Assembly: GCA_030390025.1 (NCBI GenBank)
Contig: CM059434.1
Span: 15,128,001-15,192,000 of the forward strand
DNA: 64,000 nt
Reading direction: 5' to 3'
DNA from: Squalus acanthias
Lineage: Eukaryota
In this document: one piece after another, positions 4,847-58,994 of the stretch
Layout: the number at the start of each line of letters is the position of its first letter
Position numbering within the stretch: position 1 is the stretch's first letter
Made by a program: the position numbers and the translations under genes
Notes under the pieces: model-generated
The model's input: the letters and a program-made list of their open reading frames with translations, nothing else
Told to the model about the DNA's origin: nothing
Database searches by the model: none

Positions 4847-5116
4847 CAGTAATCCCTCCCCAACCGCGGGGGACACGTCCCTGAAAACCCCCGTGGTTAG
4901 TAAAACCGCGGTGGGTAAATACAGTATAAATGTTCAAAATAACACAATAAAAAAGAATATAAAAGCAATAAAATCATGTTATTTACCTTAATCCTAAATT
5001 AAAAACTGCGTATACGCAAAATTCACTGCCGCGGTTGGCAAAAGTTGTTGCAGAGAGGAAACGGTGTATACTTGAAATCCGCGTATGGCAAAACCGTGGT
5101 TGGGGCGGGATTCCTG
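4847..5116. mobile_element. Tc1/mariner (Tigger/pogo-like) MITE (270 bp) inside Penelope
   Basis: 23 bp TIR CAG(T/G)AATCCC(T/G)CCCCAACC(G/A)CGG with TA duplication (4845-4846 / 5117-5118). Removing it restores FTCTSFKIVYC. Confidence 0.88.
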
Positions 5117-7549
5117 TACTTCTTTCAAAATAGTATACTGTATTCGCTGCTCACGGTGCGGTCTCCTCTACACTGGGGAGACCAAACGCAGATTGGGTGA
5201 TCACTTTGCTGAACACCTCCGTTCAGTCCCTAAGCGTGACCCCGAGCTTCCGGTCGCTTGTCATTTTAGTTCTCTGTCCCACTCCCACTCTGACCTTTCT
5301 GTCCTCGGCCTCCTATACTGTTCCAATGAAGCTCAATGGAAACTCGAGGAACAGCTCCTCACCTTTCAGTTAAGCACTTTACAATCTTCTGGACTCAACA
5401 TTGATTTCAATAACTTCAGATCATAACCACTGCTCCCATTTCTCCGGATAGCAGGTGCTGGCAATGGTGCTGCTGTTGCCATTTACAGTTTCTCTCGACC
5501 TATCTTTGGTTGCTTTATTGTTCCATTACCACCCCCTTTTGTCATTTAATCACTGCTGCCCTCTACCTCATCACAGACCTTCCCCTTTGTTCTTTCCTCC
5601 TTCCCCCGCCGCGCCCCTCTCCACCCCACACCCCCTTTCCCCTGGCTCTGTACTTGCTTATAAACTGTTACATCTCTAACTTCTTCCAGTTCTGACAAAA
5701 GGTCTTTGACCAGAAACGTTAACTGTTTCTCTCTCCACAGATGCTGCCTGACCTGCTGAGTGTTTCCAGCACTGTCTGTTTTTATTAAAGAGATATTCGG
5801 ACAGGTGAACAATAGCTTGGTCAAAGAGGTAGGTTTAAGTAGCGACTTAAAGGAGGAGAGAGAGGTAGAGAGGCAAAGAGGTTTAGGGAGGGAATTCTCG
5901 AGCTTAAGGGCCCAGATAGCTCACGGCACGGCCGCCAATGGTGGACTGAAGGAAATCGGGGATGCCCAAGAGGCCAGAATTGGAGGAGCGCAGAGATCTC
6001 GGAGGGTTCATAGAATCATAGAAAGTTACAACATGGAAGGAGGCCATTTCAGCCCATCGTGTCCGCGCCGGCCAACAAAGAGCTATCCAGCCTAATCCCA
6101 CTTCCCAGCTCTTGGTCTGTAGCCCTGCCGGTTAGAGCATCCCAAGTGCACATCCAAGTACTTTTTAAATGTGGTTAGGGTTCCTGCCTCTACCACGCTT
6201 TCAGGCAGTGAGTTCCAGTTGTCGGGCTGGAGGACGTTACAGAGATAGGGAAGGGCGAGGCCATGGAGGGCCTAGTTGCTTCTTTCCCCACCATTATTCC
6301 GAGTCTTGTGCACTCTTTCAATGTGAGACAGCAATTTATATGAACTTGGTCCAATCTATTTGCTGGTGACAGTGGAGTTTTATCTATACTGGGGAGACCA
6401 AACACGGATTGGGTGTTAAACCCATTAACTGCCACTTTGTAATATTAATTAGTATTTCTATCCTGCTGGTCATACATTGTTAGGTAAGGGTATCAAGGGA
6501 TATGAAGCTAAGGCAGGCAAATGGAGTTGAGGTACAGATTATCCATGATGTAACTGAATGGTGGAACAGGCTCGAGGGGCTGAATGGCCTCCTCCTGTTC
6601 CTATGATCCTACCCACTGTCCTTCCCTCTGCCCTTTGATTTGGTCCAGTCTGTAAAAGAGGCTTTTCAACTCTGAAGTAAAAGCCTCAACCTGAGACAAT
6701 AACATTTTTATTTTTATTTTTAGGTGCTGCGTGTTAATCGATCCAAACAGCCTTGGCTTGTAAAAAAAAGTTTTTAAAGTCTCCAGCAGATGGTGGAGAT
6801 GCCTAAGGAATGTCAAAGGAGATTTGTAACTCATAAATCGCCATTGATGGACTTGGCAAGGGCAGTAGTTGCTTTTTTGGATGTTCCCTACAGGGTTTTC
6901 CTAATTGTTGCCCTGCAAGAATTAGAGCTGATTTTCAGATAATCCTGGATCCGTACTTCATAAAATGAATCTGGAGATGCCAGGAATTATAACGTAGATT
7001 ATTTTTTTCCCCTTCAAGATAAACCTGCTTCAAATTCCAGCATTCTATGATAGCTGATATCTGGCTGGCACCAGTGTATTAAGTCATATTGGGTAAACGC
7101 TGTTTAAGGCCAGTATATTCTAAATAATACTCAGTTCTGCTTATGCTCCACTTTATTTCATAAATATCACTTAGAAACATAGAAAAATAGGAGCAGGAGT
7201 AGGCCCCAGGGTCGGGTATCGGACCCCCTCCTGGGGATCGCAACTCCTCCCCACCCCAGGGACAGGGATTGGACCCCTCCCCCCACCATCCTAGGCCCAG
7301 CACTTAGCTGTTGCTGCGGCTACCTCCTCTGAGTTCCCGCACGACTGGAAGCCACCCTGTCAATCAGGCTGAGTTCCGGGCGGAGAACACGCCCCTGACA
7401 TCACATGCACGCTGTGGACTTAAAACTCCACGGTGTGCCGGGAAACCCGACCTTCCAGGTTTCCCGCCATCTCCCGGGTCACCCCCCGCGCCATGTGGGT
7501 GGGAAAATCCAGCCTGTTAACTCTGTTTCTCTCTCCAGATGCTGCCTAA

Positions 7550-23384: not shown

Positions 23385-23882
23385 AGAAAGAAAGACTTGC
23401 ATTTATATAGCACCTTTCACGACCGGACACCTCAAAGCGCTTTACTGCCAATGAAGTACTTTTTTGAAGTGTAGTCACTCTTGTAATGTAGGAAGCGCAG
23501 CAGCCAATTTGCGCACAGCAAGGTCCCACAAACAGCAACGTGATAATGACCAGATAATCTCTTGCGGTGATCTTGGTTGAGGAATAAATATGGGCCAGGA
23601 CACCTGGTGGGGGGAGGGGGGGGAGGGGTGGGAGGGGGGTGGCAAGTGGGGGAGAACTCTCCTGCTCTTCAAAATAGTGGCTTGGGATCTTTTACATCTA
23701 CCCCAGAGAGCAGACGGGGCCTCGGTTTAACGTCTCATCCCGAAAGACGGCACCTCAAACAGTGCAGCACTCCCTCAGCACTGCATGCAGTGTCAGCCTG
23801 GATCTTGTGCTCAAGTCTCTGGAGTGGGACTTGAGCCCACAACCTTCGGTCTACGAGGGTGCTACCCACTGTTCCACGGCTG
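23385..23882 (-). mobile_element. DeuSINE (SacSINE1-like) with L2-type tail
   Basis: tRNA-like head at ~23820-23882. Central GAGGGAGTGCTGCACTGT…GGTGCCGTCTTTCGGGATGAGACGTTAAACCGAGG resembles the Deu domain. Same family at 24590-24795, 30665-31040, 52830-53050, 56325-56460 and 58995-59472. Confidence 0.75.
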
Positions 23883-25867: not shown

Positions 25868-26606
25868 TACATAGAATGTACAGCACAGACACAAGCCATT
25901 CGGCCCAACTGGTCCGTGCCGGTGTTTATGCTCACACGAGCCTCCTCCCACCCTACTTCATCTTACCCTATCAGCATATCCTTCTATTCTTTTCTCCCTC
26001 ATGTACTTATCTAGCTTCTCTTAAACGCATCTGTGCTGTTCGCCTCAATTACTCCTTGTGGTAGCGAGTTCCACATTCTAACCATTCTTTGGGTAAAGAA
26101 GTTTCTCCTGAATTCCTATTTGGATTTATTAGTGACTATCTTATAGCGATGGCCACAACAGAAAATACTGGAAACACTCAGCAGGCCAGGCAGCACCCAT
26201 GGAGAGAGAAACAGAGTTAAGGTTTCAGGTCGGAGACCCTTCCGACCTGAAACATTAACACTGTTTCTCTCTCCACAGATGCTGCCTGACCTGCTGAGTG
26301 TTTCCAGCATTTTCTGTTGTTATTTCAGATTTCCAGCATCCGCAGTATTTTGCTATTGTGTTATATTGATGGCCCCTAGTTTTGGATTTCCCCGCAAGTG
26401 GAAACATCTCTATGCCTACCCTATCAAATCCCTTCATAATTTGAAAGACCCTTTGGCCTTCTCTTCTCTAGAGAAAAGAGCCTCAGCCTGTTCAATCTTT
26501 GCCAATAATTATAACCTCTCAGTTGCGGTATCATCCTTCTAAATATTTTTTGCCCCTATACCCTTCTTGTAATATGGAGACCGGGACTGTGCACAATACT
26601 CTTAAG
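25868..26606 (-). mobile_element. CR1 3' fragment containing a Penelope fold-back
   Basis: Minus translation KGFDRVGIEMFPLAGKSKTRGH and CR1 tail at 25868-26000. Confidence 0.8.
26155..26360 (+). mobile_element. Penelope terminal-repeat fold-back (family A) with ~40 nt 3' extension
   Basis: Inverted arms 26155-26234 / 26241-26320 with loop GACCCT. Same sequence as the Penelope end at 5700-5785. 14 bp TSD TTATA(GC/TT)GATGGCC (26141-26154 / 26361-26374). Confidence 0.85.
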
Positions 26607-28974
26607 TTTAAATCCCAGTCTGTGCTGAGCTGGTTGATCTCACCTGGGGACAGTGCTAGAGGTGCTGCATTTGGCCTTAGAACTCCTGAGCCACAAAGAA
26701 CGAGAAACTCAGAAGTACTGTAGTAGAATAGTGTACAGTGGACAGTCACCAAGCAACCCAGATCTAGAAGTTGCTGTGCCAGAATCCCAGGCATGAACTT
26801 GTATCCTAGGACTGCTAGAAATGTACTGGGCCGGGACATTGGCACTGTAGTTTGTTATGGCAGGGAATGGCAGGAGATAAATTCATGCCTGGGATTCCCT
26901 GCATGATCTGGGTTGCTCGGTAAGTGTCCACTATATATTATTCTACTGCTCGAGAGTGTATTATTTCCAAAATCAAAATAGAGCAGGGAAAATGGAAAAG
27001 AATTCGGAAACACTTGACAATAGCTTCAGGGAATTATATTGGCTCCAAATGAGTGTGCTCCACGTTTTCTCCTTGCCTGATGGGAGTCTCTTAAGATGTT
27101 TGTAGCTGTGCCGTATTCAGAGGCTACTCGATGCCATCTGGGCAGAATGGCACCCCGCCAAGGAGGAGGAGGGGCACAAACAGAAATTAAAAGGTTAAAA
27201 GAGCACATCACCTCAAGGCACTGGGTGTCTCAGTAGCCAACTGAAGAGCAGTAGTCGGTGAGGTGTAGGTGGGGAGTACCTGGCTACTCCCTTGGACGAG
27301 ATGAGAGGGCACCGGACGCGAGTATCCTGCTGGATGTCAACCCAGAATTCGGAACTGGAGCTCTGGTCTCCACTTGCCAGGACTGTCTGGAGCAGGGTTC
27401 GAACCCTGCACCTTCTGACTCAGTGGCGGGAATGCTACCACTAAGCCAAAGACTGACGTCATTGCTCGTGGTGAATCAAAGGATACACTGTTTTATAAAG
27501 GCAGTAGTACTATGGCATGTAACTACTGTACAATGTATTATTCTGCTGTTGAGGTGGTACTATATGTAAGTGCTACCCTTTAAGCCAAGAAGATCTGAAT
27601 GCTCTAAATAGACAGATCCCGAGGTTAGTTAGAGAGTATTTGTTTCTTTGTAGATTGGCAGATGCTTATAAATCTCTGGCTCCCCCAAGATCAGAAAGAA
27701 ACCCAGCAGGAATTGACAGACTGTTCAAAATATTGCTCCGGATTGTTTTCCATCTGAGTGATCTCTGAACGGTAATAGTCCACAGACGATAAATAAAAAG
27801 TTTTTGCCCACTGAGTACTTTCCAGAATACTATATATTACATAATGCATTGTAACATTGCTATCATTATAAAATACATGCCCTTACGGTGAGCGACGCCA
27901 CAGGAGGGCCACTAGTAGTAAAAAGAAGAGCTCTTGCCTAATATATAGCACAGGAAGTAGGAAATAAAATAAAAATGTGATTCTGCAGCCAAGGAGAGAC
28001 TGTGTGAAAGAAAGTCAGACAAATGTCATTCTAGCAGTCTTAACAAAATAAATTTAAGCAAGTGTTTAGGTAATGTAAACCTTCTAACCAGAATTTTAAA
28101 TCTCTCTTTCACACAGTTTATCATGAGGGGCACAGATCACACCCATTGTTTATTCATTCAACTTCATTTATTATATGTTCTGTTAAGATCGGTTTAAATG
28201 AGTAGCCAATTCGAAGAGTAATCAGAAAGGATTAAACTCTCTCACTGGCATTTCCTTCCTTGATTTAACTATAATTCAAATAAATAATTTGCTAATTATT
28301 ACGTATAATTATGGATATATGGTTATTAATATTAGATAAAAGATGTTTAAGTAATTTCCAGACAGATTATTGTTGCAGGTAAAATTGCTTAGAAAAATTA
28401 AAAGTACGTGTGTGTGGTTGCATATGTTCTGTGAAGTAACAGTTAAGTAAACACTTTATAAAATGAGAGACATATTTCATAATTAACCTTCGGAGATGTT
28501 TCGTCCCTTTAACCTTTAAAATAGGCATTCCTTCACTAAATCACCTTTGTAGGAATGCCAGGAGAGTTAAGTGGTTTTGAGGTCATTAAGACAAGAGCCC
28601 AAGTGCCACAGGTCTCAAAGTGGCCATTAATATTGCTCCATAAACTCTGGGATGTGTGGCTGTTGATGTTAATTCAAGCCAAATGAGGCCTAACAACCCT
28701 CCCCAGGAGGGAGAATCCACCCTGGGCTACTACCGTTAGCGCAACACGTTCCAGGAATTTTCACATTCTTTTTTCATTCCTCCTTACTTTCGTCTTCTGA
28801 AGGTGGTGACTTCCTGCTGGGGTATGATCCCATGCCTTTTTGTTACTTCACCCAATGGGCCATTGCTTAGATGTATGCTTAGACAATGCGTACTGGTAGA
28901 CTATTCAACAGTGGAGAGAATCCATGCATATGCTTCCAGCAGGGGTCACTGGTAGCAATCAGCAGTGGAAACAT

Positions 28975-29592: not shown

Positions 29593-31105
29593 TCCTGCTG
29601 GCTTTTACGCCCTCTAAAACTAGGGCACTGAAGATAATTTAGTACCCTTCCCAGGAGACCATGCAACTCAGCAAAGCCCAGGGACTGCATCTTTCTGGGC
29701 TGTATGGCTTTGTTGTCGACTCTTATAACCACTGGGAGAAAACTGATCAAATCAGCGCTAAATTTCCCAGTAAATTGCAGGTGTACGTGTGTGTGTCCAT
29801 GTTCGTGACCGATGCCTACGCCTTCTTACCTTAACTTTGACTGAACCCTCATCAGTCCATTTAAGGTCAATCAGCTGAATCAGACCTCCACCAATGTCCT
29901 CTTGCCTGCTCAGGATCATCCTGCCAGATTCTCTCTGGCACTTGTAAAAAGTTGATGCAACCTTTGCATGTTGCAGCCTCATGTTATGGAGCATCACTGG
30001 ACTGCAAATTTCATAATGAATGATCAAAAAAAAAAAATTCAGGGTTGCATGAGTTTGGTCTTCATTTGGTCACTATTGAAAAGCAGAAATCCAGTCTTAA
30101 CATGATTGGATCTTTGATAGGACAGTTCTCAAAATTTTACAATTGCTCTACATCAAGCCTACGTGAAGGGAGGAGTCCTGGGTCATGGCAGGTCACATAG
30201 CAGGTTGTTAAATGTGTCTGACTGGGTAAATACAGAAGGTGGAAGCAAAGATTTTTTTTTATAAAGAAATATCTCACTTCTCTCCTTTTCTGAAGGCAAT
30301 TTGGCTGGGGTCATGTTCCTTGGGGACCATCTCCCCATGGTATTTCACCAAAATCGCCACTCTTCACATATGAGCCCAGACTGAATGGGACAGTAAGCTC
30401 CTCCACCTTAGGAAGGCATCATCACCCAAGAACCGTGCAGGAGGAAAAAGTCAAGCATAGTAACAACTGCAATTTCAAAGGGAGATCTCTCTTTCCCCTC
30501 TCACTCTTTCTGCTGTGTGACAATTACCACCAGGACTGTGCAAAACGAGTAGAGGAAGGAACACTGCTGATCCATAGGCTAGCATGAATCCTGCAGCTGG
30601 ACAAAGAGGGAAATGTGCATCTTGAAATACAGTGGGAAAGCCATTTTGATTAGGAATGAAGATTGGCTGAGCGGTAGCATTCTTGCCTCGGAGTCAGAAG
30701 GTCCTGTGTTCAAGCCCACTCTAGGACTCGAGCCCATAATCTAGGCCTGACACTTCAGTGCAGTACTGGGAGGGTGCTGCACTGTCGGGGGTGCTGTCTT
30801 TCAGATGAGGCCCCATCTGCCCTCTCAGGCGGATGCAAAGGGCCTCATGTCACTATCCGAAGAGCAGCATGGGAGGTGTCCTGGCCACCATCCATCCCTC
30901 AACTACCACTACTAAAAACAGGTTATCTGGTCAATTATCTCATTGCTATTTGATGGACCTTGCTGCTGCATTTGCCTGTTTTACACTTCAAGCACTTCAT
31001 TGCCTTTTAAGTGGTGACATACCGGAGGTTGTGAAAGGTTTGTCTTGTTAATTGAAGTGAGAAGTCGCACAACACCAGGTTATAGTCCAACAGTTTTATT
31101 TGAAA

Positions 31106-31143
31106 TCACAAGCTTTCGGAGCGGCTGCTCCTTCGTCAGGTGA
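31106..31143 (-). ncRNA. Minimal type I hammerhead ribozyme motif (mirror copy)
   Basis: Exact reverse complement of the 32059-32096 motif. Confidence 0.75.
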
Positions 31144-32058
31144 AGTGAAGGAATACAAATCGGCACAGCATATATAGACAGAGAACAATGCCTGTGCAGC
31201 GTACAATGTCAGACGACTACAGTTAATCTTTCTGACTGCCTTTTATCACACCTCGGCAGAGAGACAATCAGGTCAGTCAGGAAGACATTATATCAAAGAC
31301 ATAGCAAGATACAACTAAGACAATGAGGTGGGGTCACAGGGGGTCTAATGTGTCAGATGCTGCAGTCTGTATGGAAAACCATAAACTTTAAACTTTTTAC
31401 TTTTTTTTTTACTGGAAATCAGATCTGTGAACAAGCCAACGACTCGAGTCTGGATGACTCTATGTCAGGTGGGGTTACATGTGGCGTGACATGAACCCAA
31501 GATCCCGGTTGAGGCCGTCCTCATGGGTGCGGAACTTGGCTATCAGTTTCTGCTCGATGATTTTGCGTTGTCGTGTGTCTCGAAGGCCGCCTTGGAGAAC
31601 GCTACCAAGGCGGCCTTCGAGACACACGACAACGCAAAATCATCGAGCAGAAACTGATAGCCAAGTTCCACACCCATGAGGACGGCCTCAACCGGGATCT
31701 TGGGTTCATGTCACGCTACATGTAACCCCACCTGACGTAGAGTCATCCAGACTCGAGTCGTTGTTGGCTTGTTCACAGATGTGATTTCCAGTAAAAAAAA
31801 AGTAAAAAGTTTAAAGTTTATGGTTTTCCATACAGACTGCAGCATCTGACACATTAGACCCCCTGTGACCCCACCTCATTGTCTTAGTTGTATCTTGCTA
31901 TGTCTTTGATATAATGTCTTCCTGACTGACCTGATTGTCTCTCTGCCGAGGTGTGATAAAAGGTAGTCAGAAAGATTAACTGTAGTCGTCTGACATTGTA
32001 CTCTGCACAGGCATTGTTCTCGGTCTATATATGCTGTGCCGATTTGTATTTCTTCACT

Positions 32059-32096
32059 TCACCTGACGAAGGAGCAGCCGCTCCGAAAGCTTGTGA
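32059..32096 (+). ncRNA. Minimal type I hammerhead ribozyme motif
   Basis: UCAC-CUGACGA-A-GGAGC-AGCC-GCUCC-GAAA-GCUU^GUGA: intact core, 5 bp stem II, palindromic stem III (AAGCUU) and stem I UCAC/GUGA. Confidence 0.8.
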
Positions 32097-32548
32097 TTTC
32101 AAATAAAACTGTTGGACTATAACCTGGTGTTGTGCGACTTCTCACTTTTGTCCACCCCAGTCCAACTCCGGCATCTCCGCATCATTGTTAATTGAAGGTA
32201 TAACAAACTTAGATGATCAAACACTCCTTAGAATTCAGTTGTTTGTCTGCTGAGACGATTGAAATATCAACTGCCAGAAGCAGCCAGATTGTGTTGAGTA
32301 ATGCAGGTCAAAAGGTTAGAAGTACTGTTCAATTATCTATAAAGGTCAACAACAACAGTTGCAGAACTTTCTCTTAAGCTTGATTAGCATAGTTCGTTGC
32401 TAGCTGAACATAGTTTCCAGTGGGTTTTTGGCTACAATTATAAAGAGTGTGGCTTATAGATGGATTGTACTCAATACTCTAAACAAGGTATGTAACTGAT
32501 TAATTAGTAATACTGTGGAAATGATGCATTACCTATTACTACTATAAA

Positions 32549-38972: not shown

Positions 38973-40343
38973 ACAGTAAAATAAGATGCATTAAAGCGAT
39001 AGTCTTTAAGAATTTAGTCTCCTGTATCAGAACAGTAGCAAGCAGAAAGTCTACTGGATGCAACTCAGTCTCAATTTGAAATGGGATCCTAAAACGTGTC
39101 CCCACTATTATTTTTTTTTTTAGAAACAATTCTTAGAATTTGGGACTCCACCAGGAATTAATCCCCTTTATTCGGCCAATCATATCGTTGAATGCTAATA
39201 ACCTATCTACTCACAAGTTAGTAAATGGTTTATGCTTAAATCCGGGTCCTGCTGGCATTTTATAAAAGTTAAGGTGCATGATTTGAAGCAACTACACACT
39301 TAAAATCTCCTACTAAAGCCCCTTTGGGCAAACCATCGGAGGGCAGGTTTCATTATCACAAAAAGGAAATTGGGTTTGTAAAACATCCCGGCATTGGCGA
39401 GCCCGGTCATCGAGCTAGCCGACTCCGGCATAAAACTAGCTAGGGTGGGGCCGCTTCTAAAAGCTCATTTCAGCAGTGCTCTGGATTAAGTCAAAAAGGA
39501 CAGTATTTCTATGGAAGGTAGTCCAGGATTTTCCACTGATTACATAAATGCTCAAACTACCAGTAGGATAATGTGTATAGAATAGCGAAGCTGATATGCG
39601 AATGCCATGCTGCTTTTGGATTATTAGCTCAATCCGCTACTACAGCAATAAGTTACAAATTCCTGATTACTATTTCTTTGCCCACATTTGCTTCCCTCTG
39701 AACCACATTATCCAAAACGGACATCCCTTTCAAAATGCAAGCAGTGCGTTCTTAACCGATGGGAACCTTGCTTCGAAGAAGTTGCCATTTTGTTTGTTCG
39801 AATTACAGAACATTTTAAACTGGGGGGGGGGGGGGGGGAAATCTGCCTTTACCCAAATGGCTAAGAAACAAAAGAGGAGTCTCAGATGACTACTAATTAA
39901 ACCATAAATATATATAGTAAAAAAAACAGTACATTTTAATTTTGGCAAAAAAAATTCGCTCAAAAGGAAACTGTTGCCACCATTGCTATGAATTCTTTTC
40001 CAAGCTAAAGGCTAAGTTTTGCTTGTACTGTTGTTATTTAGGGAATGGAAAATATCTGAAATAACATTCCTGTGGAATACAAAAGTGACACTCCCTGCAT
40101 TGCACTGTGTAAAAATATAAATTTTTTTTTTTATACAGTCAAATCATGGTCCGCCTCATCTGTAAAGAAAGTGGTTCTTGCATCAACATTTTCAAAATGG
40201 CAACATGAACAGCAAACTCAAGCCGTCCACCAAAGGTGCTGTTAATACAGATCAAGTTTGTGCTGCTCCTTTTAAGTGACACCTTGCCATATTGTGGAAT
40301 GCCCCAACTAAAGAAACTTAGGTTTACTTTAAAGCATCAGTCT

Positions 40344-40634
40344 CTAAACAGCTTCCTTTCCTGCGTTTATAAGATGGGAGTGGGAAGTGTCTCTGCCGCG
40401 CATGCGGTTTTCGGAGAGCTCTGGCGTATATTCCTTGGGGCTCTCGTCAAAGTTTTCCGCGGTCCTCTCTTTCTCTTGGGAAGAAAGTACATCCACTATA
40501 TGGAGTTTGGTCTGCTCTTCTTTCAGGAAAAGATCCACCATTAATAATTTTTCTTTAGACATGCGCTCACTGATTTCCTTTGGAATGTCTGGTATCATCC
40601 AGTCCACAAAGTCACTCATAAACATAACTAGGTT
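40344..40634 (-). CDS. ANO1: Anoctamin-1 (TMEM16A), last coding exon
   Basis: Acceptor ttacAG|AAC. Encodes NLVMFMSDFVDWMIPDIPKEIS…KEKLLMVDLFLKEEQ…KEAV*; NLVMFMSDFVDW matches ANO1 rather than ANO2. 291 nt, phase 0. Confidence 0.93.
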   Translation of the reverse strand, partial: NLVMFMSDFVDWMIPDIPKEISERMSKEKLLMVDLFLKEEQTKLHIVDVLSSQEKERTAENFDESPKEYTPELSENRMRGRDTSHSHLINAGKEAV

Positions 40635-49047: not shown

Positions 49048-50407
49048 AATACTAGTGAACCAGTTGGGTTTTTATGACATTATTCTGGCAGCTTTCATGG
49101 TAAATTTCTGGTGCAAGCCACAAATGATTGGATTTACAGAATTTAGTTTCATAACTTTCCATGGTGGGATTTGAAGTCATGGACTCTGGGATGCTAGCCC
49201 AGTACCATAACCACTAGGGTACCAAAACTTACAGTCTGCTATGAAAACTAACTGGTTTAAAAGTGGAATGTCAGCCTTCATGAACAGGCGAATACCGCAC
49301 TGTGTCTCTTTGGTTGATTCCTTAATGAAATGGAATCATCTCTATTTCAAAGTGATGCATGCCCTAATCAATGCCAGCTGTAAAGTTAAAACTCATTCTG
49401 ATCAGAAGCTGACACTAATGACTGCAAAAAAAAAAGCAAAAATTGAAGTTTGGGCATCTTAACTTTTATAAATGCTTTGTAAAAAAGAGAATCCAACTGA
49501 ACACGAGCTTTTCTTGGTGTCCATAATGAACTGCTGCCGACGATGGGGATAAAAAGAATGGAAATAATCTTCTGAAATAAGGTTGTGGGGAGTGAAGAGA
49601 GAGAGAGAGAGAGAGAGAGAGCGTGAGAGAGCCTACACAACCAAAAAGGGGTTAAATTCTTAAAAGCACCGTGTTATCTATGAGTTGATGGTGAATTATT
49701 CAATTGCAAATGGGAGGTTGAATAAGTGAGGAGACATGTTATTTTCGTTCTTGGTGCAATTATTAACTGGACACCAAACAAATGTGGCTTGGTGCAGAAT
49801 TGTAACAAAAGCAAAACTTTGGAAGTTAGAACTATTTCAACAAAGACTTAAAGTTCCTTTGTCTATTTTAATATGAACAGATTAATGCATTTAATACAGC
49901 ATGATTTCAACCAAGTTTTGAAAAGGTGTAATTATGGTATTAAGTAAACACATCCATAATTGTAAATATTAGTAGTAAGAGGAAGGGTGGGGCCAATCAT
50001 TACCAGCCTAGAAGGCAAGCAGGTGGTCTGTTTCAAGTCTTCTGCCAAATACTAATATTAATGACTGGGACTTGGGTGTACAGGGCACAATTTCAAAATT
50101 TGCAGATGACACAAAATTTGGAAGTATAGTGAACAGTGAGGAGGATAGTGATAGACTTCAAGAGGACAGAGACAGGCTGGTGGAATGGGCGGACACGTGG
50201 CAGATGAAATTTAACGCAGAAAAGTGCGAAGTGATGTATTTTGGTAGGAAGAACGAGGAGAGGCAATATAAGCTAAAGGGTACAATCCTAAAGGGGGTGC
50301 ATGAACAAAGGAGATCTGGGGGTATATGTGCACAAATCGTTGAAGGTGGCAGAGCAGGTTGAGAAAGCGGTTAAAAAAAACTTACGGGATACTGGGCTTC
50401 ATAAGTA

Positions 50408-50653
50408 GACAAAAATGAGAAGTCGCACAACACCAGGTTATAGTCCAACAGATTTATTTAAAATTACAAGCTTTCGGAGCTATCGATTGCCCCTTCTTCA
50501 GGTAAAGTTACATTGTAACTTTACCTGAAGAAGGGGCGATCGATAGCTCCGAAAGCTTGTAATTTTAAATAAATCTGTTGGACTATAACCTGGTGTTGTG
50601 CGACTTCTCATTTTTGTCCACCCCAGTCCAACGCCGGCATCTCCACATCATGA
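50408..50653 (+). mobile_element. Penelope family B short fold-back (105 bp arms) with 3' extension
   Basis: 50408-50512 and 50514-50618 are inverted with one mismatch. The extension CACCCCAGTCCAACGCCGGCATCTCCACATCA matches that of the 31 kb element. Confidence 0.92.
50521..50562 (+). ncRNA. Minimal hammerhead ribozyme motif (mirror copy on minus at 50464-50505)
   Basis: UUAC-CUGAAGA-A-GGGGC-GAUCGAUA-GCUCC-GAAA-GCUU^GUAA. Stem I covaries with the 32059 copy. Confidence 0.78.
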
Positions 50654-53331
50654 GATAAGGCATAGAGTATAAAAGCAAGGAAGTTATGATGAACCTTTAT
50701 AAAACACTGGTTCGGCCTCAACTGGAGTATTATGTCCAATTCTTTAGGAAGGATGTGAAGGCCTTAGAGAGGGTGCAGAAAAGATTTACAAGAATGATTC
50801 CAAGGATGAGGGACTTCAGTTACGTGGATAGACTGGAAAAGCTGGGGTTGTTCTCCTTAGAGCAGAGAAGATGGAGAGGAGATTTGATAGAGGTGTTCAA
50901 AATCATGAGGGGTCTAGACAGAGTAGATAGCGAGAAACTGTTCCCATTGGCAGAAGGGTCGAGAACCAGAGGACACAGATTTAAGGTGATTGGCAGAAGA
51001 ACCAAAGGCGACATGAGGAAAAACGTTTTTACGCAGCGAGTGGTTAGGATCTGGAATGCACTGCCTGAAAGGGTGGTGGAGGCAGACTCAATCACGGCTT
51101 TCAAAAGGGAGCTGGATAAGTACCTGAAGGAAAAAAAATTGCAGGGCTACAGGGCAAGGGCAGGGGAGTGGGACTAGCTGAAGTGCTCTTGCAGAGAGCC
51201 GGCACGGGCTCGACGGGCCAAATGGCCTCCTTCCGTGCTGTAACCATTCTATGATTGCAAGAGTTTGTCTCAGGGTACCTGAATTCACCTTGTACAAGCT
51301 GTTGTCCCTGTATTTCTGGTTAAATGAGTGGACGACACATCATATAATCAGTGTAAAAGGTTTAACAAGTAACCTAATCCCTCTAAATTAGAACCACTTT
51401 TAAAGCATTTAGTTCATGGACAATAGGTAGTTTTAATTCATTAGCTTGGTGATTCTCTAACTGGTGAATTAAAGCATTTTGCTACAGTGATCACATGCAC
51501 TGAAGCTGAACACCAGCTTCAGATTTTTGTATAAATTTCAATATTTGCAGACGGTTACACTGTTTGGGATTTCATTAGAGAGGTGGAATGTTAGTAGTAC
51601 TTAAATGCTATATGGGTTGCTATTACCCTGAGCAATATTGGTCAGGAAGGTGCTAATACTTTTATATTAAGTTCACTTGCCCACTATTTCAATGATGGCT
51701 CATTAAAATTGACAGAAAAAAAATGAATATTAATATGGCATTGTAGGATTTCAACCCAATGTTATAAAAACATGTAATTATGGTACAGGTTATTATGCAT
51801 TAAGTAAATATCCATAATTTTAATTATCAAGGTCTGTGCGTCAGGGTAACTGAGATCTTTCTATTCACTTCAACTTGTGCAAGTTCTGTGCCCAGATTTC
51901 TGGTTAAATGAGTGGACAGCATATCAGATAACCAGTGTAAAAAGTTTAACAAGTAACCTATTGCCTCTACATAAAAGTATTTAAACCTCGATCTTTGGCT
52001 GGAACTACTTCAATGCTGAATCACACGGAGCAACATCTGCTGCATGTGCTTACGGCAGAGATATCTTAAGTATCATGTTAAACAGGAGACCTAAAAATGG
52101 TTGACATGTTTAAATTAGCCAGATGATTTATCGCACCAAAAAGAAAAGTACTTGAACTCCCCTGAGCTAACATGATTAAATATTCTTCATCAGGTTTCTG
52201 TGGTTTTTATTGATTCAGACTAACTCACTTAACATCCAGCAAGAACTATTTTGAGTCTGTGCAATGCAAGTGCCCTTGCGATGTCATAGATTCCATTTGA
52301 CTAGATGATGGAGATGCATGGAAAGTGAATCAGTCATGATATTTTATTCATTTACCAGGGGGGTTAGGAGAAGCAAAGAGTTTTGCCATGCACCATGCAT
52401 AACAAAATCAAAAAGCCATTTGTAAGAAGGGATTTACGGCTTTGTCATGCATGAGAGAGGGGGAAATTCTCCCTCCACTTCCCCTTGAGAATTTCCTGAT
52501 GAATTTGGATCAAGAATCAGCTGAAGCAAAGAAAGCAAAAGGCGGGAGTGTGTGGAGCCGATCTGGCATAAAAGGGAGGTAATTCATTAGTGGGGTGCTA
52601 CAGGAATTAGTACTGGGGCCATTGTGGTTTACAATGTGCATATATACTTGGAAATGGGAACAGAAGCAAAACTCTCCAGGTTTGCAGATACCACCAAACT
52701 GGGGGGGGATTGCACGCAGCGGTGAACAGGCTGATCACCCACAGAAGGACCTGGATATAATGGGGACCTGGACGGATGAGTGGCAAATGTCATTTAATGC
52801 GGACAAAGGCCAAATCATGAGATTGGGAATGAAAGAACGAACTTGCATTTATATAGCACCTTTCACACCCTCAAGACATCCTTTACAGCCAATGAAGTCC
52901 TTTTTGAACTGCAGTCACTGTTGTAATGTAGGAAACACAGCAGCCAATCTGCACACAGCAAGCTCCCACAAACAGCAATGTGATAATGATCAGACAATTT
53001 TTTTTTTTTAAAGTGACATTGATTGAGGGATAAAGATTGGCTAATAACAGCCCTATTGTTGTAAAACAGCACATCCTCAGAGCCAATCTGATACCTGTCT
53101 ATATCTATAGGTACACAGCCTTTAGATTTCAGTTTTCAAAACAAATGCCCAGATACCTCTTGCAAGTTTTCACTCAAGAATTGGACAGCATTACCAGTCT
53201 GTGCTCTTTCATGATCTTGACACTCTTTCAGCCGCACGTAGGAGGTAGCCAGTTGTGGTCTGTAGTGTTTACCTTCAGCTCTTCTCCAGTAAACCATCAA
53301 AATAAATAAAACTAGGAGTTTTTATTTGCTC

Positions 53332-53559: not shown

Positions 53560-54156
53560 TGAAGAAAGCCTTGCATTTCTATAGCGCCTTTCATGACCTC
53601 AGGAAGTCCCAAAGCGCTTTACAGCCAATGAAGTACTTTTGAAGTGTAGTCACTGTTGTAATGTCGGAAACATTGCAACAGCAATGAGAATGACCAAATA
53701 ATCTGTTGAGGGGTAAATATAGGTCAGGACACTGGGAAGAACCTCCTCGCTCTTCTACAAAATAGTGCCACGGGAACCTTTATATCCACTTGAGGGGGTA
53801 GACGCAGCCTCGGTTTAATGTCTCACCCGTAAGACGGCATCTCCGACAGTGCAGCGCACTCTCCGTACGGCACCTCCGACAGTGCAGCGCACTCTCAGTA
53901 CGGCACCTCCGACAGTGCAGCGCACTCTCAGTACGGCACCTCCGACAATGCAGTGCACTCTCAGTATGGTACCTCCGACAGTGTAGCGCACTCTCAGTAT
54001 GGTACCTCCGACAGTGTAGCGCACTCTCAGTACGGCACCTCAGACAGTGCAGCGCATGCTCAGTATGGCACCTCCGACAGTGCAGCGCTCCCTCAGTACT
54101 GCACGGAGGCGTCAGCCTAGGGGAGTGGGACTTGAACCCACAACCCTCTGACTCAA
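53560..54156 (-). mobile_element. DeuSINE (SacSINE1-like) with internal tandem amplification
   Basis: Colinear with the copies at 23385-23882 and 58995-59472 except for the repeat array. Confidence 0.8.
53834..54097. repeat. Minisatellite, 8 x 33 bp
   Basis: Unit ACGGCACCTCCGACAGTGCAGCGCACTCTCAGT, head to tail, with no spacers. Confidence 0.95.
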
Positions 54157-57100: not shown

Positions 57101-57481
57101 CATCCCCCGTGTATCTCTTGCCCAAAACCTTAAATCTGTGTCCCCTAGTCCTTGTACCATCAACTAGTGGGAACAGACTTTCCCCGTCTAGCCTATCCAA
57201 ACCAGTCATAATCTTGTACACCTCTATCAAGTCACCCCTCAACCTCCTTTGCTCTGATGAAAACAAATCCAGCTTCACCAACCTGTCCTTGTAGCTAAGA
57301 TCCCCCATCCCCGGAACCATTCTGGTCAATGTCCTCTGCACCCTCTCAAGGGCCTTCACATCCTTCCTAAAGTGTGGTGACCAGAACTGGATGCAATATT
57401 CCAGTTGTGGCTTAACCAGCGCTTTATATAAAGGTTCAGCATAACTTCTCTACTTTTGTACTCAATACCTCTATTTATGAA

Positions 57482-57608
57482 TGATGCGGAGATGCCGGTG
57501 TTGGACTGGGGTGGACAAAAGTGAGAAGTCGCACAACACCAGGTTATAGTCCAACAGCTTTATTTGAAATCACAAGCTTTCGGAGCGCTGCTCCTTCGTC
57601 AGGTGAAG
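57482..57608 (-). mobile_element. Penelope family B solo terminus (127 bp)
   Basis: Matches 32056-32184 in reverse. 14 bp TSD CCTCTATTTATGAA (57468-57481 / 57609-57622). Confidence 0.92.
57570..57606 (-). ncRNA. Minimal hammerhead ribozyme motif, sense to ANO1
   Basis: UCAC-CUGACGA-A-GGAGC-AGC-GCUCC-GAAA-GCUU^GUGA on the minus strand. Confidence 0.78.
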
Positions 57609-58994
57609 CCTCTATTTATGAAGCCCAAGATCCCATATGCTTTGCTAACCACTCTCTCAATATGTCCTGCCACCTTCAGGGACCTATACACATTAACTCC
57701 CTCTGTCCCTGCACACTCTTTAAAACTGTGCCATTAAGTGTATATTGCCTCTCCCTGTTCCTTCTGCCAAAATGCATCACCTCACACTTCTCTGTATTAA
57801 ATGCCATCTGCCACTTGTCTGCCCATTCTGCTAGCCTATCTATGTCCTGTTGCAGTCAATTGGAATCATCCTCACTGTTTGCCATACCCTCAAGTTTGGT
57901 GTCATTGGCAAATTTAGAAATTCTACTCTGTATTCCAATATCCAGGTCATTTATATACATCAAACAAAGCAGTGGCCCCAGCACTGACCCTTGGGGAATA
58001 CCACTGTCTAGCATCCTCCAGTCTGAAAAACAGCCATTTACCACAACTCGCTGTTTACTATCCTTAAGCCAATTCCTTATCCAAGCTGCCACTGACCCAC
58101 CTATTCCATGAGCCTCAATTTTATTAACCAGCCTTCTATGTGGTACTTTGTCAAACGCCTTCCTAAAATCCATGTAGACAACATCCATTGCATTCCCTTC
58201 ATCAATCCTCCCTGTTAAAGTTCTTTAAAAATGAACATTTCATGCAACTCATTATGCTTCTAGAATTCTAGACTTTGCATACTGAAGGCAAACAAAAAAT
58301 GGACAGACAGTGCTCTGAAAGCTAGTTTGAATAAGTCTATTATGACAGCAGGCTAATGCTCGGAGCATTAGTTCCATCCATCTTCTGCCTCTCGCTCATG
58401 GAATCTTAATGTAACTGAACATTACATTATTCTGCCAATATTTTTCAAGTTAATGGAAACAACATACCGAGCTTAATATTTTACCGGAGCATTTTTTTAA
58501 TGTAGTTGGGAGGGGGCGGTGCTAAAGAGACATTTTTGTGCGGTTAAATTATCAATGGCTTCAAGTAACAAACCCAGCTCTCATTCCATGGGTTTGTCAT
58601 AAAAATCTCACCCATTTAAACTGACTATTTAACACTTGACACATTTAAGTGTCATGATTAGTATTATATATTGAACAAGTTGTATATTTCTGATGTAATT
58701 TGAAACATGTTTTTTTATATCCTATTGTAGCCCTTTCTAATTTTGCTGGCCCATTATTATTATTATTATTATTTTTTTTTTTTGCAGTGCTTTTATTTTC
58801 TTTATAAATTGTTGCAATTATTTAACAAATTTTGAATCCTTCTTCCCTGCTGCGTACCAAGACCCAAATGATTAGACGCACATCCAGAGCAGGTTAAAAG
58901 GATCCTGAAAGAAATGCGACAGCACTTAAAAAGGAACTTGAATTAAAAAACCTTGCCTGGACTTGACTTTGGATCATTCACGATGTCAGTAAAA

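Follow-up and report, generated by a model that had tools for sequence, protein, structure and literature searches.

A tight palindrome downstream of ANO1 in Squalus acanthias is a single insertion of a shark Penelope-like element

The tight palindrome at 31045 to 32197 of the analyzed window (64,000 nucleotides of Squalus acanthias contig CM059434.1, positions 15,128,001 to 15,192,000 of the forward strand; all coordinates below are those of the window) is one insertion of a shark Penelope-like element (PLE), and an exact target site duplication (TSD) encloses both of its arms. The features of the insertion are listed below, where P0003 is a protein of the shark Heptranchias perlo.

31045..31057 (+): left copy of the TSD, 13 bp; its last 3 nt, AAG, are a likely priming microhomology
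31058..31595 (-): left arm, a tail-less 5'-truncated PLE 3' end read in element sense from the minus strand
31105..31145 (-): minimal type I hammerhead in the left arm, with cleavage predicted between 31110 and 31109
31475..31603 (-): C-terminal 42 codons of the PLE ORF plus stop, 93% identical to P0003 aa 602-643, entering the loop
31596..31604 (-): 9-nt loop, element sequence (Ser-Val-Leu codons) extending the left arm
31605..32147 (+): right arm, a second copy of this PLE 3' end, in sense, beginning ~9 nt further downstream in the element
31606..31725 (+): C-terminal 39 codons of the PLE ORF plus stop, 92% identical to P0003 aa 605-643
32057..32097 (+): minimal type I hammerhead in the right arm, with cleavage predicted between 32092 and 32093
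32148..32184 (+): PLE tail, 37 nt (40 nt if the AAG overlap is assigned to the target), on the right arm only
32185..32197 (+): right copy of the TSD, 13 bp, an exact match to the left copy

Global alignment of the arms (31055-31595 against the reverse complement of 31605-32147, 541 and 543 bp) spanned 544 columns, of which 8 are substitutions and 4 are gaps. These amount to 10 events, since the gaps come from two indels, one of 1 nt within an A run and one of 3 nt within a GTT microrepeat. Transitions make up five of the eight substitutions, including two at CpG sites, and the symmetry is perfect over the innermost 65 bp. Each arm contains the last 39-42 codons of the ORF followed by ~420 nt of 3' region, and the 37-nt tail extends the right arm only, up to the second target copy. 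The 13-bp direct repeat is exact, AT-rich and starts with TT; a 13-mer was shared by chance in 8 of 20,000 random position pairs from comparable flank windows. As the AAG that ends the left TSD copy matches the element too, the insertion itself comprises 31058-32184. That the arms are two independent insertions side by side was ruled out because a single TSD surrounds both of them. A prior sequence-only reading of this locus had described two ~540 bp arms with about ten changes, a 9 nt loop, a 37 nt one-sided extension and one 13 bp TSD marking a single insertion, and this anatomy proved accurate, although the span it gave (31055..32197) starts inside the left target copy.

The element was identified by homology search; a Pfam search of the arm peptides gave no recognition. 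The 43-residue left-arm peptide used as query matched 19 proteins, the closest named ones from Heptranchias perlo (93-95%) and the next from other sharks. In tblastn the C-terminal peptides of the arms were 92-93% identical to P0003, which has a reverse transcriptase (RT) domain (RVT_1 in Pfam), a GIY-YIG-type core (VVYLIRCRKGC...YIG...H...H with CCHH residues) and a CX4CxxC linker between RT and endonuclease. A CX2-5CxxC linker was present in 6 of the 16 named relatives examined, P0003, the closest, among them, many of the others being fragments. According to the text of Craig et al. 2021 (PMC8557442), this motif marks the Neptune and Nematis clades and is absent in Penelope/Poseidon. The linker motif of the relatives thereby places the source as an endonuclease-bearing shark PLE of the Neptune/Nematis type, and Neptune is the likelier of the two clades because it is reported to be widespread in vertebrates. 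The prior assignment of the arms to a Penelope 3' end therefore stands in the sense of Penelope-like, but by the linker motif not of Penelope/Poseidon proper. Similarly, the GIY-YIG C-terminus reported for each arm is indeed the C-terminal end of the endonuclease domain, but the GIY-YIG motifs themselves are absent. In endonuclease-bearing PLEs the tail is expected to run on into the start of the element ORF, at the pLTR-ORF junction; comparison of the 3' region and tail with 135 relatives gave no sense-frame match and one antisense match, and the named relatives seem N-terminally incomplete. The 37-nt tail is also common to two other family copies in the window. A 30-40 bp tail, an adjoining inverted 5'-truncated copy and a TSD of the variable-length kind, the traits of endonuclease-bearing PLE insertions, are all found at this locus. 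The insertion is dead and 5'-truncated, without usable coding capacity, and is most likely not under selection for any function. Note that P0002, P0015 and P0018, annotated as shark XRCC5, PPP1R12A-like and FAM204A isoforms, contain this PLE endonuclease peptide, so that these gene models include PLE fragments that are exonized or mis-annotated.

Self-comparison of the window detected two further tight palindromes derived from PLE 3' ends, both tailed on one side, and a single-arm copy.

57482..57608 (-): single-arm copy of the same subfamily, with hammerhead and tail and an exact 14-bp TSD, within a CR1 copy
50405..50650 (+; arms 50405-50621): second palindrome, related subfamily, 108-bp arms with 2 differences, 1-nt centre, ~30-nt tail, within a CR1 copy, no clean TSD
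26155..26360 (+; arms 26155-26320): third palindrome, second PLE family, 80-bp arms with 7 substitutions, 6-nt loop extending the tail-less arm, ~40-nt tail, degenerate 14-bp TSD

Thus 3 of the 7 PLE 3' ends of both families in the window form tight palindromes, a count that omits a weak internal match at 6357-6415. Arm divergence is 2% at the second locus and 9% at the third. The three palindromes have three fold points in three subfamilies, and the centre is at most 9 nt in every one. With two more examples within 64 kb and the junction type already published, the rarity formerly ascribed to such a palindrome was overstated.

Several other repeats were observed in the window. The second palindrome (50390-50660, +) and the single-arm copy (57468-57622, -) occupy the homologous site of two CR1 copies, the flanks of which are only 70-75% alike. 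Two of the four CR1 copies that span this site carry an insertion, and these are the two that share an AT-rich motif. Insertion at the same CR1 site hints at a sequence-preferring endonuclease. Four short PLE insertions (50514, 26241, 57608 and about 59710) are truncated within ~15 nt of the 5' side of the hammerhead or inside it, a clustering that could reflect a transcription start or RT stalling; the predicted cut site lies elsewhere. A fragment of the second PLE family at 5103-5786 (+) retains the GIY-YIG motif region (Pfam PF01541, E 0.0022) and a decayed hammerhead, and neither an inverted partner nor a tail was detected for it. An old hairpin-like inverted repeat at 26722-26947 (65% over 242 columns), without a match to the PLE families, is perhaps a decayed miniature DNA transposon. 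A tandem array of a 33-bp unit at 53834-54104 (8.2 copies), the unit of which also occurs singly at 23740 and 59321, is apparently an internal amplification in a dispersed repeat.

The shark palindrome belongs to a known class of PLE insertion products, among which it is long, and the architecture of these has been published. The text of Craig et al. 2021 (PMC8557442) describes endonuclease-bearing PLEs that adjoin an inverted 5'-truncated copy and carry a 30-40 bp tail at one end, whereas that of Arkhipova et al. 2013 (PMC3846280) describes head-to-head PLE junctions with palindromes as abundant. Both accounts share with our locus the head-to-head inverted copy, the junction palindrome, the tail at one end and the single TSD. 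Unlike those elements, both copies here are truncated at almost the same point, such that the whole insertion is a palindrome with 540-bp arms; the rotifer palindromes described in the latter paper span 18-38 bp at the 5' end of the pLTR. Truncated PLE fragments of Schistosoma likewise carry two minimal type I hammerheads on opposite strands, spaced about 100-700 bp apart in the text of PMC4209133 as against ~920 bp here, in a shark. In the Poseidon element of Anolis carolinensis (PMC11167929) the tail is also the stretch between two RT starts and the target is also AT-rich. Poseidon belongs to a different clade, whereas the shark family has the CX4CxxC linker, and the text of that study does not model palindrome formation. 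Non-LTR retrozymes (bioRxiv 10.64898/2026.07.22.740005, as described in its text) resemble the palindrome in being non-coding PLE-derived pieces with type I hammerheads, but they are head-to-tail tandem repeats with at least 2 hammerheads on the same strand. The shark palindrome is instead head-to-head and cannot form a dimer in cis. Retrozyme identity was ruled out by the tandem criterion, since no tandem array exists at the locus and its hammerheads lie on opposite strands. In LINE-1 twin priming, reverse transcription is primed from both cut target strands and microhomology joins the products, which inverts an upstream segment without duplicating it. The two primers here would instead both begin near one 3' end and leave an inverted duplication.

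The two arms do not reach equally far into the element. On the left arm the tblastn alignment of P0003 crosses the loop and extends to aa 602, whereas on the right it stops at aa 605, and on the minus strand the loop reads S-V-L as in the PLE family, a match that 24 of 65,536 random 8-mers would give. The tail-less arm thus reaches further into the element than the tailed arm and the loop, rather than being neutral spacer, continues the tail-less arm; the junction was placed by protein homology rather than by a family DNA consensus and its base-level position is open to shift. The third palindrome agrees in polarity: with two in-window homologues, its loop scores 31 versus 22 and 26 versus 17 in favor of the tail-less-arm reading. 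The polarity of the second could not be read owing to its 1-nt centre and the lack of a homologue of its upstream sequence. A single fold-back of a tail-primed cDNA was ruled out, as it would place the loop on the tailed arm. The prior proposal of fold-back or template switching during reverse transcription consequently keeps its RT origin but loses the single fold-back from tail-primed cDNA. Because a cDNA begun at the inner site could not supply the tail sequence and a tail-primed cDNA would misplace the loop, the geometry implies that two priming events are needed under target priming. That all three centres are at most 9 nt further implies that truncation of the two arms is coupled.

We think it probable, though well short of certain, that the main palindrome arose in the insertion reaction itself, with both cut strands priming reverse transcription, followed by snap-back or end joining. 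The element endonuclease would stagger its cut by 13 nt in AT-rich DNA and both 3' ends would prime on element RNA, the top strand at an inner start site, where the AAG/CUU match may help, and the bottom strand at an outer site 37-40 nt further 3', giving the tail. The top-strand cDNA of ~550 nt would stop in the endonuclease coding region, snap back on a 2-bp seed and copy itself; alternatively, both cDNAs would reach nearly the same point and be joined there, an outcome indistinguishable from snap-back at this locus. The top-strand product would then anneal to the tail-bearing cDNA and the gaps would be filled. The candidate seed, within the 9-nt palindrome loop, is an AG/CT pair that closes a 4-nt loop, a structure other than the minimum-energy fold predicted for the cDNA end in isolation, and a stem-loop predicted around the inner start site was no better than shuffled sequences (z -0.6 to -0.8). 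The PLE of the anole was seen in vitro to cut and extend each of the two target strands and to start reverse transcription at two adjacent RNA sites that bound the tail, whereas the two strands showed no difference in start site (Frangieh et al. 2024, PMC11167929, as reported in its text). Two-strand priming has its weak points: two of the three palindromes are informative for polarity, such that the agreement may be due to chance, and the in vitro model is a Poseidon element, of another clade.

A different route would start from a tail-bearing antisense RNA or a free antisense cDNA, which would fold back at its 3' end, prime its own extension and integrate as a hairpin, the template half losing 37-40 nt. 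Self-priming of this kind was proposed for head-to-head PLE palindromes by Arkhipova et al. 2013 (PMC3846280) and predicts a loop on the template half, possibly the tail-less half, as observed. It needs, however, an extra trimming step of regular size, and its authors concede in that text that antisense promoter activity was not demonstrated. Moreover, according to the text of PMC11167929, the in vitro template spanned the pLTR-ORF junction and target priming accounted for the tail. We regard this route as unlikely, albeit deserving of attention. The loop polarity could also have been set by a later deletion at the palindrome centre. If a longer inverted structure or a perfect palindrome had been cut back by deletion of the hairpin tip, the polarity would be uninformative. 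Long inverted repeats with short spacers are described as breaking and rearranging (text of PMC7999016), microhomology-mediated deletions as common among PLE copies (text of PMC3846280), and the 1.5% arm divergence leaves time for such an event. Yet all three centres are at most 9 nt, two of them between arms of only 80-108 bp, and a deletion from a widely spaced repeat would seldom be so symmetric; later trimming is accordingly improbable.

The insertion might instead have been copied whole from a palindromic source locus, the founder of a non-autonomous hairpin subfamily. PLE proteins are described as mobilizing pLTR-framed sequence in trans (text of PMC3846280), and both arms have Ile-Ile before EQ, which none of the 17 relatives with a readable motif (of 19) shares. 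The shared Ile-Ile is, however, equally expected if one RNA templated both arms, the window palindromes have three fold points in three subfamilies, and none of the 19 relatives contains the peptide of both arm orientations, a weak test. Such a source is therefore a very doubtful explanation. A fold-back artefact of assembly or of a read would find some encouragement in the trouble that inverted PLE structures are known to cause in assemblies (text of PMC8557442) and in the 1-nt A-run difference, which could be a sequencing error. It is scarcely credible, as the arms cease to be symmetric where the element ends, the unit sits within an exact TSD with unlike flanks, the arms differ at 10 sites including the two CpG transitions, the tail is one-sided and the same pattern recurs at two other loci with different arm divergence.

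The hammerhead motif noted before near each outer arm end was located as cores of the form CTGACGA...GAAA at 32063 (+) and 31139 (-), ~920 bp apart. Both arms contain a minimal type I hammerhead of the PLE kind, a class in which self-cleavage would proceed as a dimer or with protein assistance. The core traits are CUGANGA plus GAAA, stems I and II and a helix III of 1-2 bp, and both arm hammerheads have an extra base before stem II, a G10.1-C11.1 pair and a palindromic loop 3, three traits listed for minimal hammerheads in the text of Cervera and de la Pena 2014 (PMC4209133). In an alignment to a hand-drawn structure, 49 of 50 cells were paired over 5 distinct in-window copies versus 22-47% in slid controls, with two-sided changes in 6 of 10 pairs; the six copies aligned are a small and related set, the structure was drawn from one of them and the covariation comes largely from one distant copy. 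The Rfam hammerhead models gave no hit at the gathering threshold in the whole window and none at E up to 10 in 31900-32250, and a relaxed descriptor is said to be needed for minimal PLE hammerheads (text of PMC4209133). The general expectation that PLEs combine an inverted structure, a short tail and minimal hammerheads matches the published descriptions. A fold point at the hammerhead cut site was ruled out, as the fold point lies ~490 nt upstream. Read-through RNA entering from either side should contain one sense hammerhead, synthesized after its antisense copy. Having no dimer partner in cis and being buried in a predicted duplex of ~540 bp, this hammerhead would be unlikely to cleave itself. 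AATAAA lies immediately 3' of each hammerhead (31100, -, and its right-arm mirror), and in principle read-through RNA could be polyadenylated there, at the far end of the hairpin.

At the epaulette shark mutation rate of 7e-10 per site per generation (text of PMC10587355), 8 substitutions over ~540 sites correspond to an insertion age of ~11 million generations (Poisson 5-21 million; 2-100 million over the rate interval), a crude estimate given that the rate is from another species, that hairpins may mutate faster and that some arm differences may date from the insertion itself. Over 128 columns, the independent copy at 57482-57608 differs from the arm by 2 substitutions and 1 gap. The arms are therefore as divergent from one another as from this copy, with no sign of homogenization or of kept symmetry. 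Inverted Alus with a 12-bp spacer stall replication forks and break in yeast and primate cells (text of PMC7999016). The expectation of the sequence-only reading that such long tight palindromes are unstable is hence reasonable for 540-bp arms and a 9-nt spacer, but this copy has lasted to 1.5% substitutions, a persistence that is mildly notable.

The gene upstream of the palindrome is ANO1, as had been proposed, and its last exon matches anoctamin-1 on the minus strand.

40344..40634 (-): last coding exon of ANO1, anoctamin-1 residues 870-941 of 960, E 7.5e-20, acceptor and stop found

AATAAA signals follow this exon at 39172, 38079, 35694, 35122 and 34711. The last of these has the most U/GU-rich downstream sequence and is 2.5 kb from the element, which lies 2.5-3.5 kb beyond the three nearest signals in the transcribed direction. 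Between 35001 and 41000 there is no repeat that recurs elsewhere in the window. This repeat-free stretch after the stop ends near 35 kb, suggesting that the mature 3' UTR would stop short of the element. The ANO1 3' region at 40346-34700 (-), ~5.6 kb without repeats and with several polyA signals, suggests a long 3' UTR or alternative polyadenylation. A Pfam search of the 78 ORFs of at least 62 aa in the 21.7-40.3 kb interval returned just two hits, both weak and implausible, and the insertion site looks intergenic. Given the general features of polymerase II termination, nascent ANO1 read-through into the element is plausible, and with it a possible dsRNA role, although RNA beyond the polyA site is uncapped and short-lived. 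The palindrome RNA has a predicted fold of -1057 kcal/mol with perfect runs of up to 171 bp. In a lizard (text of PMC5625713) and in Xenopus tropicalis (text of PMC10636886), A-to-I editing is strongest in a set of repeat families that includes Penelope, and occasional editing by ADAR would be the expected fate of any palindrome transcript. Whatever its origin, the palindrome might have been retained as a regulatory source of dsRNA from ANO1 read-through. The position and orientation of the element, the strong predicted fold and the heavy editing of Penelope repeats favor this functional reading. Against it stand the 3' region ending short of the element, the short life of RNA past the polyA site, the arms differing mutually (8/540) as much as from the independent copy (2/128) and the lack of a host Pfam domain in the 78 ORFs beyond those two hits; we consider such retention most improbable.

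By itself the locus matters little, being a dead PLE fragment of described architecture, and its value is that of a clean specimen. The origin of the tandem and inverted ends of PLEs is called undefined in the texts of PMC8557442 and PMC3846280, and the assignment of loop and tail to one arm or the other offers a simple genome-wide discriminator between models of formation. A loop-polarity rule was not found in the literature searched, mostly the main text of open-access papers, and it may be in print. PLE hairpins could explain the heavy A-to-I editing of Penelope repeats in lizard and frog. A tight palindrome diverged by 1.5% in a slowly mutating lineage also raises the question of how well sharks tolerate palindromes. 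A bolder proposal, which we put forward tentatively and think rather less than even in likelihood, is that a loop on the tail-less arm is a rule of PLE palindromes and the in vivo footprint of double-strand target priming plus snap-back, that such insertions are frequent in sharks and that their genomes are full of long-lived tight hairpins forming a main load of self-dsRNA for ADAR. If this is true, the polarity rule would settle how the inverted ends of PLEs arise, and shark hairpins would last for millions of generations despite the instability known in yeast and mammals.
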